49,751 bases of DNA from Patescibacteria group bacterium (lineage in GTDB: Bacteria; Patescibacteriota; Minisyncoccia; Ryanbacterales; GWA2-47-10b). The position numbers and the translations under genes were made by a program. The notes under the pieces are model-generated. The model searched no databases, was not told the DNA's origin, and saw only the letters and a list, made by a program, of their open reading frames with translations. Below, piece by piece: positions 17,944 through 42,822 of this stretch (positions are counted from its first letter, which is position 1; every line of letters starts with the position of its first letter). The stretch is from contig JBBTQY010000006.1 of the NCBI GenBank assembly GCA_038065475.1, forward strand, positions 1-49,751, in the 5' to 3' direction.

Positions 17944-18366
17944 TAGATACGTTGAGTAATCGCCCCGCTGAAGCGGGGAGGAAAGTCCGGGCACCATTTC
18001 AAAGATTTTTTCTTTGATAAAGTGGCAATGGCTAACGGCCATCCATCCAAGAATTTTTTCTTGGTACGAGATAGTGCCACAGAGACCATACCGCCGATCG
18101 TCATTTCAAAAACCCTAAAGGTTTTTGAGTTGAAGGCCGTCTCGCACAACGAGACGAGCTTCGCCCCGAAAGGGGCGAGAGGTAAGGGTGAAAAGAGTGG
18201 TGTAAGAGACCACAGCGTGCGTAGGCAACTGCGCGCGGAGGAAAACACTTGCCCGGTGCAACTCCCGTACTATGTGAAAGCATTTTGTGGAGGCTCGAGC
18301 TTTGTGGGTAACCCAAAGCCCAGATAGATGATTACATAAAACAGAACCCGGCTTACGGACGTATCT
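17944..18366 (+). ncRNA. rnpB: RNase P RNA
   Basis: Conserved GAGGAAAGTCCGGGC, AGTGCCACAGA and ACAGAACCCGGCTTA. P1 is AGATACGT/ACGTATCT. A TACAAT -10 box lies upstream and a terminator downstream. Confidence 0.95.
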
Positions 18367-18367
18367 C

Positions 18368-18403
18368 AAAACAAAAAATCCCCGCAAGGGGATTTTTTGT
18401 TTT
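18368..18403. terminator. Bidirectional intrinsic terminator
   Basis: AAAACAAAAAATCCCC-GCAA-GGGGATTTTTTGTTTT lies between rnpB and the convergent MerR-like gene. Confidence 0.85.
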
Positions 18404-26598: not shown

Positions 26599-26672
26599 GC
26601 GGGCATAGTTTAGTGGCAAAATGATTGCTTCCCAAGCAATAGATGGGAGTTCGATTCTCCCTGCCCGCACCA
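26599..26672 (+). tRNA. tRNA-Gly(CCC)
   Basis: Acceptor stem GCGGGCA/TGCCCGC, anticodon arm ATTGC-TTCCCAA-GCAAT, T-loop TTCGATT, and encoded CCA. Confidence 0.95.
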
Positions 26673-26745
26673 GCCACCTTAGCTCAGTCGGTAGAGCAGT
26701 GCTTTCGTAAAGCAAAGGTCCCCGGTTCGAATCCGGGAGGTGGCT
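26673..26745 (+). tRNA. tRNA-Thr(CGT)
   Basis: Acceptor stem GCCACCT/AGGTGGC, anticodon loop TTCGTAA, T arm CCCGG-TTCGAAT-CCGGG. CCA is not encoded. Confidence 0.93.
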
Positions 26746-32972: not shown

Positions 32973-33043
32973 TCCGGGTTCGTCTAATGGCAGGACACAT
33001 GCCTCTGGAGCATGGAATTGGGGTTCGAGTCCCTGACCCGGAA
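32973..33043 (+). tRNA. tRNA-Gln(CTG)
   Basis: Acceptor stem TCCGGGT/ACCCGGA, anticodon arm CATGC-CTCTGGA-GCATG, T-loop TTCGAGT. CCA is not encoded. Confidence 0.92.
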
Positions 33044-37838: not shown

Positions 37839-38468
37839 ATGGATACCAAGCCTCTCGAGCGCCTGACCGCTGCCCTCTATCGGGTGACTGACCGCATGGC
37901 TGATGAAGAGCCTCTCAAATGGGCTTTACGCCGCACCTCACTCGACCTCTCACAGGCGGCGCTCAAAAATCCTGAATTGCTATCAATACCCGAAGAAGAG
38001 GCACGATCAAAGATGATGGCAACTCTCTTTGCCGAGCTCATCAGACTCTTGGAGCTTGCGGCGTCTATATCATATATTTCCCGTATCAATTTTGAGGTTT
38101 TAATACGCGAGTATCGTCATATCGAATCTAGCATCTTTCGAGGTGGGGAGATGACGCTTATCGAACCAGAAAAAAAACAAGAAGAAGTTCAGGAAAAACC
38201 AAAAGAAGAGGTTGTTGCAAAAGAAAAAAAATATACACAAACGTCTTCACATAGAGAAATGGTTCAACCTTCCGACCGTCAAAAAAAGATTTTGGAGCAT
38301 TTGGTCGCCGTAGAGCGGGGGATAAGCATTGGCGATCTCGTTGCTTATTTTGATGGCAAAATAAGCGATAAAACGATACAGCGAGATTTGATTGAATTGG
38401 TATCGTCCGGATCTATTCGTATTGAGGGTGAGCGCAGATGGCGCAGATACTTCGCTGAAAATCGATAG
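37839..38468 (+). CDS. Helical-bundle plus C-terminal winged-HTH (DeoR-like) DNA-binding protein
   Basis: N-terminal LYRVTD..EPLKW.LR helices and C-terminal RQKKILE..ISDKTIQRDL.ELV..G.I..EGERRWRRY. Confidence 0.75.
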   Translation: MDTKPLERLTAALYRVTDRMADEEPLKWALRRTSLDLSQAALKNPELLSIPEEEARSKMMATLFAELIRLLELAASISYISRINFEVLIREYRHIESSIFRGGEMTLIEPEKKQEEVQEKPKEEVVAKEKKYTQTSSHREMVQPSDRQKKILEHLVAVERGISIGDLVAYFDGKISDKTIQRDLIELVSSGSIRIEGERRWRRYFAENR

Positions 38469-38600
38469 TCTCAAAATCGTTTGTTTATAACGTGTTTCTA
38501 TTGGACATAAAATTTATGTCCTTTATGTCCTATAGAAATCCTTTATTTTTCGTAACAAAAAAGTGACACCATTCGTTAGAACTTTTTAGGCTCATTTTTC

Positions 38601-38629
38601 TTGACATTAGTGGTCTAAAAACCTATACT
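38601..38629 (+). promoter_or_regulatory. Near-consensus sigma70 promoter
   Basis: TTGACA-17 nt-TATACT. Confidence 0.8.
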
Positions 38630-38635
38630 CTTTTC

Positions 38636-39131
38636 ATAGGTTGAGACTCTCAATTTGCGTCAATTTTGCGTTTATCCACAACGCTTCCAATTGAATGAGC
38701 TCTCGAGCCTAACGTATACTAATGCTAGTGATGTTCTTGGCTGACTGAGTCATTTTGAGAGGGGCCATTTTTTGGCTTCTTTAAGGCGTTTAGGGGTTTT
38801 TCTCTGAAACTTGCTCGAGTATCCTTTGGCAATCTTCAGGGTGAAACGACAGATTTTACTGATTGAAAGGCCTTTGAAAACTTCATAACTAATTGTTCGG
38901 AAGATTCCGAAATTCAACATTCTTAACTTGCTATTAAAAATCAGCAAAGCTTGGGCAATGCTTTGTTGATCCCGGCTCCGCCTCTGTGTCTTTCTAGACA
39001 TAGAGGCGGGGCTGGGTAGTCAAAGGGCCCTATTACAAAAAAGTACTGACAACGGAAGCTCGAAATCGTGTTCCTTTGGTCGAGGAACTTAGCGAATTCG
39101 GGCATTATATTATCAAAAAGAAAGAAACCAC
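38636..39131 (+). ncRNA. Long structured 5' leader or ncRNA candidate
   Basis: No credible ORF. It holds at least six hairpins with G-U pairs that form on the + strand, and lies directly after a strong promoter. Confidence 0.55.
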
Positions 39132-42100
39132 ATGAGTAATTTCAAAAAAACAGGGAGGAAAGCCCTCTCAGTTTTAGTGAGTGTGGCGACTGTAACGTGG
39201 TTGGTTGGTGCTCCTCTTGCTGCTTCAGCGGCATTGACCCAATCGCAGATCGATAACATTATCGGTCTTCTCCAATCGTTTGGTGCAGATAGCGCCACGG
39301 TTAACAACGTTCGCACGTCACTCTCAGGCGGTACACCTACGGGTGGCACCGGCACAGGTACTGGCACAGTAGGCAGCTGCGGTTTTACCCGCGACTTGAC
39401 CTTGAATGTGACAGGTGAAGACGTCCGCTGCTTGCAGCAATATCTCAACGGCGCCGGATTCATGGTTTCGTCAACAGGTGCAGGTTCACCTGGTAGCGAA
39501 TCAACCTTTTTCGGATCGAAGTCACAGGCAGCAGTAGCCAAATGGCAGGCTGCAAATGGCATCACGCCATCAGCTGGATACTTCGGTGCAAAGTCACGCG
39601 CAGCTTATAACTCAATGGCAGGTGGCACCACGCCTCCTCCAGGCACAACTCCTCCTCCGGTAGTACCGGGAGGTTCAGGACTTTCAGTCTTTAAGACTTC
39701 AAGTCAGCCAGTAAATGGTCTTGCTCCTGCAAACGCAGCACGCTTGCCATTTACCAATGTAAGCTTTACTGCTTCATCTGACGGTGATGTAGTAGTAAAT
39801 TCAATCACCGCTCAGCTCAACGGTCCTACAGATACCGATCCTTTCGCTGGTATCGTAGTCGTTGATGAAAACGGTGTTCAGCTTGGCGATGCAAAGACTT
39901 TCAATTCAGCACGACAAGTTGTCCTTACCGCACCTTTCACGGTTAAGGCAGGACAGACTCGCTGGATGACCATCGCTGCAAACATGGATTCAACTTTGTC
40001 TGACGACGCAGGAAACGTAGCGAGCATTGCAGTTGTTGGTGTAAACACATCAGCAGTTGTAAATGGCAGCTACCCAATCGAGGGGGCGATTCACACGTTG
40101 AACTCAAACCTTACCCTTGGCTCAGTTTCAATGAGCCGCGGATCAGTAGATCCAGGCGCTGCACAGACGAAAGAAGTTGGAACCACGGGTTACAATTTCT
40201 CATCGATCAAAATCACTGGCGGCACTGAAGACGTTCGCGTCAAGTCAATCCGCTGGTACCAATCAGAATCAGCAGCATCAGGTGACCTTGCCAATCTCAA
40301 GACTGTGGTTGACGATGTATCATATGACGCTACGTTGAGCGCAGACGGCAAATACTACGTGACGGTATTCCCATCAGGTGGTATTTCTATCCCAGAAGGT
40401 ACCGCAAAGGATGTAACCATTCGTGGTGATATCGTTGGCGGTGCAGCTCGCAAGGTTGACTTTGACATTGCGAAGCGCTCAGACATTCACGTTGTAGAAT
40501 GGATTTCAGGCGCAGAACGCTACGGCATTCTCCCTCCATTCGCAGGCAGTGCAGCTACCGCTGACACTTCAAACTTCAACAACGCAGATGACAACTACTA
40601 CGAAGCTTCTGTTGTAACAATCAACGCAGGCCTCGTAACAGTAAGTAACTGGACTTCAGGCGTTCCTGCAGCAAACATTGCAGAAAACACCCTCAATCAG
40701 CCTATTGCTGGTATCGCTGTTGATGTAAAGGGTGAGGCAGTATCAGTTCAGCAGATGAAGTTTGACATCGATATCAACGAAAGTTCAGGTACCGATGCAA
40801 CTATCGCTGATCTTACAAACCTCACGCTCGTTGATGGCACCGGCAAGGTTCTTGCAGGTCCAAAGGATGGCAGCGGTTCTGGTGATTCAGGTTCAATTAC
40901 CTTCACCGACACCATCACCTTCCAGCCAGGTATTACCAATGTAAAGCTTATTGGTAAGCTTGGTACTGACTTCGACACCAACGACACGATTCAGGCTTCA
41001 ACCACTCCGGGCAGCACAAGCTACTGGATCACGGTAAAGGGCCAGAATTCAAACAACACGATTACCCCAACGCCGGCTTCAGCGATCACTGGTTCACTCC
41101 AGACCGTAAAGTCAGGTTCACTCACCGTGAGTGTTTCATCACTCCCGACTGCGCGCACCATCGTTCCGGGTAACCAAGTTGAGCTTTCTCGCTATGTATT
41201 TGACGCAGGTCAATCAGGTGAGGATCTTCGCATGAGCACGATTCCGCTCTTCTTTAACACGAGTGGTACTCGTACTGATGTACAGAACTGTCAGCTTTAC
41301 AACGGCACGACTTCTGTAAACGCAAGCAACAAGCTTAACCCAGGTACTTCTGACACTGCTTCATCGACTTCACTTACCTTCGATGGCACGGGCCTTATCC
41401 TTGCAAAGGGTTCGGTCACAACACTCTCACTCAAGTGTGATGTTCGTACTGGTGCATCAGGTACTCTTATGTGGGGTATCGATGACGGCCAGAACTCAGC
41501 GTACACAGGTGTAAGCGGTAAGGACAGCGGTCAGACGATCACCGAAACTTTCGTTGATGCAAGTGGTCAACACCACATAGTATCAACTGGAGGTTCATAC
41601 ACGGTGACCGCAGACAGCTCAACCCTCTATAAGGTGGTACAGGCCGGCGCAACCGATATTCCGGTTGGTGCATGGCAAGTTGAAGCAAGCAATGTTGAGA
41701 ACATCACATTGGTTCGCATGAACTTCGCACTCGGCGGTGTTGCTTCAAATACACCAGCAAGCTTGCAGAGCCAGAAGATTACTCTCTGGGACGGTTCAAC
41801 CCAACTCGGTGAGGCAATCTTCCAGAACTCAGGTCCATTTGCTGACTATGCAACATCATCTTCACACGTAGGAAACGCCAATGGTCTTAACCTCACGGTT
41901 CCTCGCGGTGAATTCAGGACGGTGACTGCAAAGGCAAGCTTTAGCGCTATTGACGCTAACGCAGCTAGCACTATGATCGGTGGCTTCCTCATCGTTAACT
42001 ACGATGGTGACAGCAATGGTACCAGCGATGGTAACTATGCAGTTGGCGCTGACTCAGGAACTAATATCACGGGTGCGTCTGCAGACCAGACAACCAATGG

Positions 42101-42746
42101 TGTTCGTGTCTTCCGCTCAGTACCTACTATCACTGATGTAACTCCAGCAGGCGTTAAGCTCGTACAAGACGCTGACTTGATGCAAATCAAGATCGCTGCC
42201 GGCTCAGGCCGCGCAATCGGTGTTCGCGCACTTTCGTTCAACGTAGCAACGGTTGGTGCAACTGTGACCGGATTCCAAGTATACGGTCCTTCAGGAGCAC
42301 TTAACTCAACTGCCCAGAACGCAGGTATCGCTGGTGGCAACGGAGATTACCTCCGCATCACCTTCGATGACACGGCAACTGACCGCATCATCCCAGCTGG
42401 CGGCTATAAGATCTATAGCATCCGCGCTAACTCGGTGACCGGTTTGACCTCTGCAAACCAGGAAAGCATCAGCTTTACCTTGCGCGCAGACTCAGCTTAC
42501 CCAGGTCTCCAGAATTTGGTGGCCCAGGTTTATGACCTTGAAGGTAGCCAGTCAACTGGTGGTGACGTTTCATCGGTCGCCGCTTCAACGACTGACAACT
42601 TCCTCTGGACGTCGTTTAGCACCACGACACCTCCGTCAATCGGCACAGCCGCTATGAACGAGCTTGCCGACTGGACGAACGGTTACGGTGTACCCGGCTT
42701 CCCATCAGTAGGTCAGAACTTCCAGCCACGCTCATTCACTGACTAA
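39132..42746 (+). CDS. Large secreted surface protein (S-layer-like) with a peptidoglycan-binding domain
   Basis: Signal peptide ending AASA; PG-binding motif FTRDL..GEDVRCLQQYLN..FG..SQAAVAKWQ; a long Thr/Ser/Gly-rich beta region; strongly biased codon use. Confidence 0.8.
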   Translation: MSNFKKTGRKALSVLVSVATVTWLVGAPLAASAALTQSQIDNIIGLLQSFGADSATVNNVRTSLSGGTPTGGTGTGTGTVGSCGFTRDLTLNVTGEDVRCLQQYLNGAGFMVSSTGAGSPGSESTFFGSKSQAAVAKWQAANGITPSAGYFGAKSRAAYNSMAGGTTPPPGTTPPPVVPGGSGLSVFKTSSQPVNGLAPANAARLPFTNVSFTASSDGDVVVNSITAQLNGPTDTDPFAGIVVVDENGVQLGDAKTFNSARQVVLTAPFTVKAGQTRWMTIAANMDSTLSDDAGNVASIAVVGVNTSAVVNGSYPIEGAIHTLNSNLTLGSVSMSRGSVDPGAAQTKEVGTTGYNFSSIKITGGTEDVRVKSIRWYQSESAASGDLANLKTVVDDVSYDATLSADGKYYVTVFPSGGISIPEGTAKDVTIRGDIVGGAARKVDFDIAKRSDIHVVEWISGAERYGILPPFAGSAATADTSNFNNADDNYYEASVVTINAGLVTVSNWTSGVPAANIAENTLNQPIAGIAVDVKGEAVSVQQMKFDIDINESSGTDATIADLTNLTLVDGTGKVLAGPKDGSGSGDSGSITFTDTITFQPGITNVKLIGKLGTDFDTNDTIQASTTPGSTSYWITVKGQNSNNTITPTPASAITGSLQTVKSGSLTVSVSSLPTARTIVPGNQVELSRYVFDAGQSGEDLRMSTIPLFFNTSGTRTDVQNCQLYNGTTSVNASNKLNPGTSDTASSTSLTFDGTGLILAKGSVTTLSLKCDVRTGASGTLMWGIDDGQNSAYTGVSGKDSGQTITETFVDASGQHHIVSTGGSYTVTADSSTLYKVVQAGATDIPVGAWQVEASNVENITLVRMNFALGGVASNTPASLQSQKITLWDGSTQLGEAIFQNSGPFADYATSSSHVGNANGLNLTVPRGEFRTVTAKASFSAIDANAASTMIGGFLIVNYDGDSNGTSDGNYAVGADSGTNITGASADQTTNGVRVFRSVPTITDVTPAGVKLVQDADLMQIKIAAGSGRAIGVRALSFNVATVGATVTGFQVYGPSGALNSTAQNAGIAGGNGDYLRITFDDTATDRIIPAGGYKIYSIRANSVTGLTSANQESISFTLRADSAYPGLQNLVAQVYDLEGSQSTGGDVSSVAASTTDNFLWTSFSTTTPPSIGTAAMNELADWTNGYGVPGFPSVGQNFQPRSFTD

Positions 42747-42787: not shown

Positions 42788-42822
42788 CAAAACCACCCCC
42801 GAAAGGGGGTGGTTTTGTTTTG
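42788..42822 (+). terminator. Intrinsic terminator
   Basis: CAAAACCACCCCC-GAAA-GGGGGTGGTTTTG followed by a T tract. Confidence 0.88.

Follow-up and report, generated by a model that had tools for sequence, protein, structure and literature searches.

A conserved structured leader with an rRNA-operon-type boxA sequence upstream of a predicted S-layer-like gene in a Patescibacteria bacterium

Described leader systems and the surface-gene leader

The use of boxA and the Nus factors in rRNA synthesis is textbook biology, and, to our knowledge, the documented use of boxA on protein-coding genes is rare and mostly repressive. Here we describe the region upstream of a gene for a 1204-aa secreted, wall-binding surface protein in a Patescibacteria group bacterium (genome G000; 0.86 Mb on 18 contigs, 98.9% complete), within a window that comprises the whole 49,751-nt stretch of DNA that was analysed (contig JBBTQY010000006.1 of assembly GCA_038065475.1). 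Rather than a free-standing non-coding RNA (ncRNA), the region 38498–39131 comprises the control sequences of the surface-protein gene together with its 5' leader. Within the leader, the block 38869–38882 matches, at the level of sequence, the boxA of the lineage as it is found in its rRNA (rrn) operons. We favor, with a probability of roughly 55%, the reading of the region as an rrn-type antitermination leader that works through Nus factors and serves a highly expressed gene of the S-layer-like kind.

The surface-gene leader resembles the leaders of rRNA operons, the system of the NusB/NusE/NusA/NusG complex (with SuhB and S4), in that predicted tandem strong promoters are followed by a long, untranslated and folded leader, in which a hairpin is followed by a single-stranded candidate boxA resembling that of the rrn leaders in the same organisms. 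Genes for NusB and RNase III are likewise present in the genome. In contrast to the leaders of rRNA operons, the surface-gene leader precedes a protein-coding gene and ends in a ribosome-binding region; moreover, no leader–trailer helix was found, no boxC was identified, and outside of boxA neither the sequence nor the structural models reveal any likeness to the rrn leaders.

A second point of comparison is provided by gamma-proteobacteria, where boxA sites described in PMC5725501 precede the non-rRNA genes suhB and a ParE-like toxin gene, and thus, as in the present case, are located outside of rRNA operons in the 5' untranslated region (UTR) of an mRNA. The suhB-type sites treated in that source lie within ~50 nt of the start codon, and their main effect is to repress translation, with termination by Rho. 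In the present leader, by contrast, boxA is positioned ~250 nt upstream, within a structured leader of 400–500 nt, and Rho was not found in the genome.

The S-layer mRNAs of Firmicutes and other bacteria have long stabilising 5' UTRs of ~100–200 nt, often with more than one promoter, and we know of no reported boxA among them. The original prediction, made from the sequence of the window, had drawn the analogy to these UTRs, and it is a reasonable one, since a long structured UTR before a highly expressed gene for a surface lattice is common to both; what sets the present leader apart is its length of 400–500 nt and its rrn-type boxA. A fourth likeness concerns the promoter region. In E. coli dnaA, a DnaA box is located between two promoters, and similarly the leader described here has an exact TTATCCACA between predicted tandem promoters, a word that in this genome is enriched outside of open reading frames (ORFs) and upstream of genes. 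Unlike in E. coli dnaA, the candidate target would be a surface-protein gene, and the adjacent helix-turn-helix (HTH) protein is an alternative candidate for the binder. Taken with these systems, the leader appears to be a conserved variant of the rrn-type leader: boxA on a protein-coding gene is already known. Full-text searches, judged by title and abstract, found no literature on boxA leaders in bacteria of the candidate phyla radiation (CPR) or at S-layer genes.

The boxA block and the surface-protein gene

The leader was compared in relatives from the genus, the order and the class. A DNA search of 61 related genomes yielded two congeners, with 83% and 75% identity, which together with G000 provide three sequences for the genus. 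For the order, the N-terminal 173 aa of the surface protein served as the query and found relatives in 21 of 22 genomes; the resulting 17 order leaders, from four families, comprise 16 loci with a full N-terminal match and upstream DNA (G000 included) as well as the leader of G002, which was taken from the DNA search. For the class, 251 genomes were sampled and 40 upstream regions were picked by full N-terminal match, long ORF and family spread. Conservation of the leader extends over the 17 order genomes and, as regards its general outline, over 40 further genomes from the class.

The boxA-like block, GGCCTTTGAAAACT (38869..38882, + strand), is located downstream of the predicted promoters P1 and P2 and of a long hairpin identified by covariation, H3 (38796..38847, + strand), which ends ~21 nt before the block and thus occupies the position of a boxB-type hairpin. 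All leaders have a GAAC[N]TTGAAAA-type block after H3, and single-sequence folds place a strong hairpin ahead of boxA in most of them. The 16S leader of G000 in turn carries GAACATTGAAAATT, ~190 nt upstream of 16S, where it is preceded by a promoter of consensus type and by a strong hairpin, and a G[AG]AC[GA]TTGAAAA-type block is present 90–330 nt before 16S in 11 of the 11 16S leaders recovered in the order. Sites were scored with a 14-nt matrix derived from 10–11 rrn leaders of the order, leaving out the own genome, and with the 99th percentile of random 500-nt windows (12.17) as threshold. With the matrix from the other genomes, the rrn site of G000 is the top match of its whole genome. The threshold is reached by 15 of the 17 surface-gene leaders of the order, always at the homologous place after H3, and by 21 of the 40 class regions, in which, whenever both are present, the site follows TTATCCACA at a distance of 100–170 nt; several near misses in the class are of the ..CCTTGACAAT.. 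type.

In most relatives, the block is the same or nearly the same as the boxA of the genome's own rrn leader. In G002, for example, the surface-gene leader has GAACTTTGAAAATT and the rrn leader GAACGTTGAAAATT, and in G013 the surface-gene leader has GAACGTTGAAAATT and the rrn leader GAACATTGAAAATC. Within a leader that otherwise diverges, it is also one of the most strongly conserved stretches. The original prediction had recognised no known riboswitch consensus in this region. The leader carries the rrn-type boxA of the organism, which points to a known kind of mechanism, and it is therefore no "unrecognisable" RNA. The NusB that such a mechanism would require is encoded in the genome (PF01029, E 3.7e-37, C11:21011-21400).

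The gene that follows the leader (39132..42746, + strand) encodes a protein with a signal peptide, a PG_binding_1 domain (Pfam, E 1.5e-07) and then a long Thr/Ser/Gly-rich region. Orthologues (E ≤ 1e-15) are present in 133 of the 251 class genomes, mostly as ORFs of ~1200 aa. We take the 1204-aa protein to be a candidate major surface protein, S-layer-like, of a Parcubacteria-type CPR bacterium; S-layer proteins are predicted in Paceibacterales in the work presented under 10.1101/2024.05.28.596244. The gene has strong codon bias, its effective number of codons being the 4th lowest among 336 ORFs of at least 300 aa, which makes high expression plausible.

Several observations weigh against an rrn-type antitermination leader. 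The block of G000 (GGCC..) departs from the boxA of its own rrn leader (GAAC..) and has a matrix score of only 13.08, and the ORF-free DNA of the genome contains 8 sites scoring at least 12 per 103 kb (both strands), which corresponds to ~4% per 500 nt. The case for boxA therefore rests on conservation across relatives and not on the single site. Two leaders of the order, those of G005 (10.29) and G007 (4.35), and 19 of the 40 class loci fall below the threshold. Alignment of the rrn and surface-gene leaders outside of the block gives a local score of 19, which is reached by 166 of 300 shuffles. A contiguous-helix scan for a leader–trailer helix returned a longest helix of 13 bp with G-U pairs, matched by 41 of 200 shuffles, although such a helix belongs to rRNA operons as such and is no part of how boxA works. 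The RNA-binding domain of Rho (PF07497, Rho_RNA_bind) was not found in the 98.9%-complete genome, whereas it was detected in control genomes, such that the classic anti-Rho rationale may not apply. Finally, the covariation alignments presented below were fitted to models and comprise related sequences, and the counts of compensatory pairs therefore overstate their independence.

Some of these observations are shared by an alternative explanation, unlikely in our view but the one that survives best among the rivals, namely that the region is a plain stabilising or translation-enhancing 5' UTR, in which the hairpins would shield the mRNA from RNases, the A/U-rich end would recruit ribosomes, and the boxA-like block would be a single-stranded site for an RNase, S1 or another protein. 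The conservation of the hairpins, the A/U-rich and unpaired start region, the strong codon bias of the gene and the failure to find Rho are all consistent with a UTR of this kind, as is the moderate match of the G000 block to the rrn boxA, given that ORF-free strand yields a score of this kind roughly every 13 kb. A pure stabiliser nevertheless fails to explain the block itself, because it is identical or nearly identical to the own rrn boxA in most relatives and is so strongly conserved within a divergent leader.

The boxA match would equally be explained if the site were repressive or part of a feedback, as at E. coli suhB, lowering the expression of the gene or tying it to the free pool of NusB and S10 as a growth-rate signal. 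Indeed, Nus factors at the suhB boxA repress translation and promote Rho-dependent termination, as reported in PMC5725501. The geometry of the present leader makes this improbable, since the ~250 nt that separate boxA from the start codon contrast with the proximity of the suhB-type sites (the search published in the same source extended to ≤50 bp), and, in addition, Rho was not found and the gene appears to be highly expressed.

With respect to the genomic setting of these components, we note that nusB lies next to the RNase III gene (C11:21011-22290), and that ~6 kb further downstream contig C11 ends with the rrn promoter, the rrn leader (C11:27880-28270) and the initial 50 nt of 16S, the gene proper being absent from the assembly. 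Between genes of G000, boxA-like blocks also occur at two other places, at C5:63211 (GCACTTTGAAAACT) and at C10:107019 (GTTCTTTGACAATT), the latter ~25 nt ahead of a gene whose product begins like a signal peptide.

Three covarying helices in the leader RNA

The + strand of 38630–39140 folds to -171.5 kcal/mol (z -6.71), and 0 of 100 dinucleotide shuffles are as good, so that the pronounced structure proposed at the outset holds against shuffled controls; the - strand of the same region folds to -139.4 kcal/mol (z -4.32). An alifold of the three congeners contains 140 pairs, 19 of which show a compensatory change. Two models were used to follow the structure beyond the genus, R1, which was built from the three congeners and spans 38752–38892, and R2, which covers 39054–39105.

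With filters off, R1 locates the corresponding site in 10 leaders, which belong to three families, with E values from 1.7e-40 to 9.6e-06. In the resulting alignment, 92.4% of the cells are paired, compared with 36–54% when the 3' partners are slid by 1–3 columns, and 22 of the 44 pairs are compensatory, compared with 11.7 ± 1.9 in shuffles, where 0 of 500 reach 22. Within R1, hairpin H1 (38756..38784, + strand), which has the form GGGGCCA-loop-UGGCUUC in the minimum free energy (MFE) fold, has 7 of 12 compensatory pairs with 93.5% of cells paired, and for H3 the corresponding values are 13 of 22 and 94.2%. The closing helix of R1, in which the boxA block would be paired at its 5' edge, is weak, with 1 of 7 pairs compensatory. 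Among the 40 class loci, R1 gives 7 matches at E ≤ 0.1, 3 of them below 0.01, the model being too narrow for the class because it was built from three close sequences.

The third helix is a two-tier 3' hairpin (39058..39103, + strand) with a UGGUC apical loop at 39077–39081. R2 finds it in 9 leaders; of its 18 pairs, 12 show compensatory change there, and the share of paired cells is 90.1%, compared with 38–56% with slid partners. Independent single-sequence folds place the word GGUCG in the loop of a hairpin in 15 of the 17 order leaders, the two leaders of family f2 being different. The controls with slid partners argue that H1, H3 and the 3' hairpin are real, and these three covarying helices are formed on the + strand, within a conserved cassette. 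The structure anticipated in relatives is thereby borne out, with compensatory pairs in 10 leaders for H1 and H3 and in 9 for the 3' hairpin. On the rrn loci, R1 and R2 give E values of 0.26–0.9 only.

Most of the stems that had been drawn from the single sequence are also kept among the three congeners. The stem 38755–38767/38773–38784 has 100% of cells paired and 1 compensatory pair, the stem 38940–38950/38960–38970 has 90.9% and 1 pair, the 21-bp helix with G-U pairs on the + strand has 100% and 2 pairs, and the 3' hairpin has 96.7–100% and 4 pairs. This is not the case for the imperfect stem 38637–38649/38697–38711, of which 76.9% of cells are paired, 7 of 13 pairs are broken in at least one congener and none is compensatory; the stem was rejected, and it overlaps the apparent second promoter, P2. 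The long-range pairing 38869–38877/39020–39029 is not supported either; it is kept within the genus (95.8% of cells paired) but shows no covariation (0 compensatory pairs), and its 5' arm is the boxA block.

Between boxA and the 3' hairpin, the MFE fold contains a small hairpin, UUCGGAAGAUUCCGAA (38896..38911, + strand), which all three congeners share and which includes one compensatory pair, followed by two adjoining helices (38940..39016, + strand), one of 11 bp (38940–38950/38960–38970) and one of 21 bp (38971–38991/38996–39016). The latter includes three G-U pairs that are formed on the + strand only. Among the 13 leaders folded, a helix of at least 16 bp is present at the place of the 21-bp helix in G000, G001, G004, G006 and G015, and G002 has one in addition; its 3' strand (GGGGCUGGG / GGGGCUGAAG / GGAGCUGGA) varies in step with the 5' strand. 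This long helix is an optional module that varies between lineages. It is a possible substrate for RNase III, the gene for which is encoded in G000. Downstream of the 3' hairpin, the leader ends in an A/U-rich start region (39104..39131, + strand) that is unpaired in the MFE fold and has a weak Shine-Dalgarno sequence (GAAAGAAA), while relatives carry a ATTAATAATTATTAGGAGAA-type stretch. The start had been described as lacking a Shine-Dalgarno sequence, which applies to G000 and G001, but in the majority of relatives the ATG is preceded by AGGAG or AGGAAA.

In a search of the whole window, no Rfam family matches the leader at the gathering score, in agreement with the original prediction, and a permissive search of 38400–39250 returned only microRNA-like hairpins (best E 0.0077, 28.5 bits compared with a gathering score of 84). 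The length, strong folding and absence from Rfam of the region would also suit a structured ncRNA with a gene of its own, expressed from P1 or P2, with the surface-protein gene having its own promoter near the ATG, and in G001 a TTAGTC-18-TATACT-like site is seen by eye near the 3' hairpin. We regard such a gene as very improbable, because this promoter-like site is not kept in G000 (spacing 24), no terminator-like site was found before the ATG between 38630 and 39131, the leader core is present as a single copy in the G000 genome, and in the loci examined the leader is never found away from the orthologous surface-protein gene. Of the earlier proposal of an undescribed cis-regulatory RNA or large ncRNA, the first part thus stands, as a conserved cis leader absent from Rfam, whereas the separate ncRNA does not. 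Regulation at the level of DNA only, with RNA folds that have no function, would agree with the resemblance of the 5' part to DNA signals (repeats, P1, TTATCCACA and P2), but is just as improbable, since compensatory changes hold the three helices while the sequence diverges and the G-U pairs form only on the + strand.

The leader contains no sense ORF of at least 30 aa. An antisense ORF of 83 aa (38750–39001) was rejected as coding, the longest antisense ORF of the closest relative being 22 aa. ARAGORN detected 0 tRNA or tmRNA genes over 38000–39600.

Predicted promoters, proposed mechanism and surrounding genes

The first ~120 nt appear to be better read as DNA signals, namely P1, TTATCCACA and P2, with P1 and P2 as putative tandem promoters. 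P1 (38601..38629, + strand) is the TTGACA-17-TATACT promoter that had been noted ~500 nt before the ATG; 11 of its 12 positions agree with the consensus, the site does not vary among the three congeners, and its predicted start is at ~38636. The exact word TTATCCACA (38672..38680, + strand) is located between P1 and P2, 42 nt past the -10 element of P1, and is present in 15 of the 17 order leaders and 30 of the 40 class regions, which together make up the 45 box-bearing leaders. P2 (38691..38720, + strand), TTGAAT-18-TATACT, has 9 of 12 matches and a predicted start at ~38727, and its -35 element begins 10 nt after TTATCCACA in G000. A P1-like site occurs at most 110 nt upstream of TTATCCACA in 29 of the 45 box-bearing leaders, and a P2-like site begins 7–21 nt after it in 26 of the 45 at a strict score of 9/12 or better; weaker P2 sites are seen by eye in further leaders, and by eye both f2 genomes that are without P1 and TTATCCACA retain P2. 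The predicted length of the leader is ~405 nt from P2 and ~495 nt from P1.

The word TTATCCACA presumably equals the consensus of the DnaA box, for which we take TTATNCACA, and indeed it is a 9-mer that fits TTATNCACA, stands beside a promoter and is conserved in relatives. G000 holds 12 copies of TTATCCACA, of which 9 are outside of any ORF of at least 100 aa, in a genome where 89.5% of the sequence is covered by ORFs of at least 120 aa. The dnaA gene is present, and no cluster of DnaA boxes by which the local consensus could be calibrated was found near it. We suggest that TTATCCACA between P1 and P2 is probably a protein-binding site, with DnaA as the obvious candidate for the binder and the neighboring conserved HTH protein as an alternative candidate. 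Most of the copies of TTATCCACA in G000 are sense-oriented upstream of genes, and several are located ~27–34 nt ahead of a -10-like hexamer. Positions other than that in the leader include C10:37727, C17:7254, C8:50343, C9:25536, C10:74091, C8:63042 and C3:1716. The genes headed by the word, with names read by eye from N-terminal residues, include prepilin-like (MKKQMKKGFTLIEL..), MraZ-like and S20-like genes and two large ORFs (824 and 1088 aa).

Upstream of P1, inverted and direct repeats of the form (T)GGACAT / ATGTCC(T) (38498..38535) have an operator-like arrangement. The repeats are conserved in the three congeners and, in the form (T)GGACAT/ATGTCC(GAT), across the family, at the corresponding places of loci L002–L004 and L009–L011, and by eye related repeats are present in other genera, with family f2 having ATGTCGTTTA repeats at the corresponding place. 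We consider the GGACAT/ATGTCC repeats likely to be operators, perhaps for the neighboring HTH protein. Part of the repeat region, 38503–38521, also qualifies as a weak terminator-like hairpin that could serve the HTH gene. The operator-like repeats appear to change together with the adjacent HTH regulator when the family of G000 is compared with f2.

On the reading of the region as an rrn-type antitermination leader, transcription would start downstream of the operator-like repeat from the tandem sigma-70-type promoters, P1 and/or P2, and a protein at TTATCCACA, with DnaA as a candidate, would tune P2 and/or block P1. The leader would fold co-transcriptionally into H1 and H3, after which NusB and S10 would bind to boxA as it emerges behind H3. 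Together with NusG and NusA, this would render RNA polymerase resistant to pausing and termination, as on rRNA operons, and the resistant polymerase would cover the 0.4–0.5 kb of untranslated leader and the 3.6-kb ORF completely and fast. RNase III may cleave the long helix, and how stable the mature mRNA is and how well it is translated would be determined by the UGGUC hairpin and the A/U-rich region. If Rho is lacking, the gain would lie in the speed of elongation, in resistance to intrinsic terminators and pauses, and perhaps in a coupling to the free pool of NusB and S10.

A broader version of the antitermination reading, which we put forward only tentatively, is that throughout this class of ultra-small CPR bacteria (Parcubacteria/Paceibacteria) the S-layer-like gene is transcribed by the rRNA antitermination machinery via a family of 400–500-nt leaders, with the promoter gated by DnaA at the invariant TTATCCACA. 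If true, production of the envelope would be wired directly to ribosome synthesis and replication status in cells with few regulators and no detectable Rho, and bacteria with reduced genomes would reuse the transcription mode of rRNA for a bulk structural protein. The leader would define a new structured-RNA family for Rfam, and the strong promoters and leader would offer an expression handle in CPR co-cultures. Control of the CPR envelope would also become assayable, through NusB–S10 binding, DnaA binding and RNase III cleavage.

The ORF-free gap that contains the region (38469–39131) is located between an ORF of 209 aa with a C-terminal DeoR-like HTH (37839..38468, + strand; Pfam HTH_DeoR, E 4.9e-06) and the 1204-aa ORF. 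The gap had been singled out as unusually long, and with 663 nt it indeed ranks 7th of the 480 ORF-free gaps of the genome, the median of which is 55 nt. By eye, the HTH gene, with its C-terminus of the type ..GExRWRxY, is present upstream of the leader in 16 of the 16 order loci with an orthologue, and the order of HTH gene, leader (~300–600 nt) and surface-protein gene is constant in all 16. A regular expression for the C-terminal signature of the HTH protein matches 20 of the 40 class loci.

At its 3' side, the surface-protein gene is followed by an intrinsic terminator, read from the sequence as CCACCCCC-GAAA-GGGGGTGG and then a T-run (42789..42822, + strand). A terminator-like hairpin with a T-run (GGGAGGAAAGCCCTCTC AGTTTT) is also present at 39153–39169, within codons 8–16 of the surface-protein ORF; the sequence there is kept in relatives, yet it also codes for the conserved TGRKALSV motif. 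Elsewhere in the window, an RNase P RNA of class A (165 bits) and three tRNA genes are found, at 17944–18371, 26599–26745 and 32973–33043. Lastly, the 16S leaders (L036–L038, and that of G000 at C11:28080-28100) have a (C)CGTCGAA / CCGGTCGAAC word downstream of boxA. This word resembles the GGUCGA word in the loop of the 3' hairpin, and R2 gives no match there (E 0.75–0.9); it may be a second signal shared by the two kinds of leader, or it may be due to chance.

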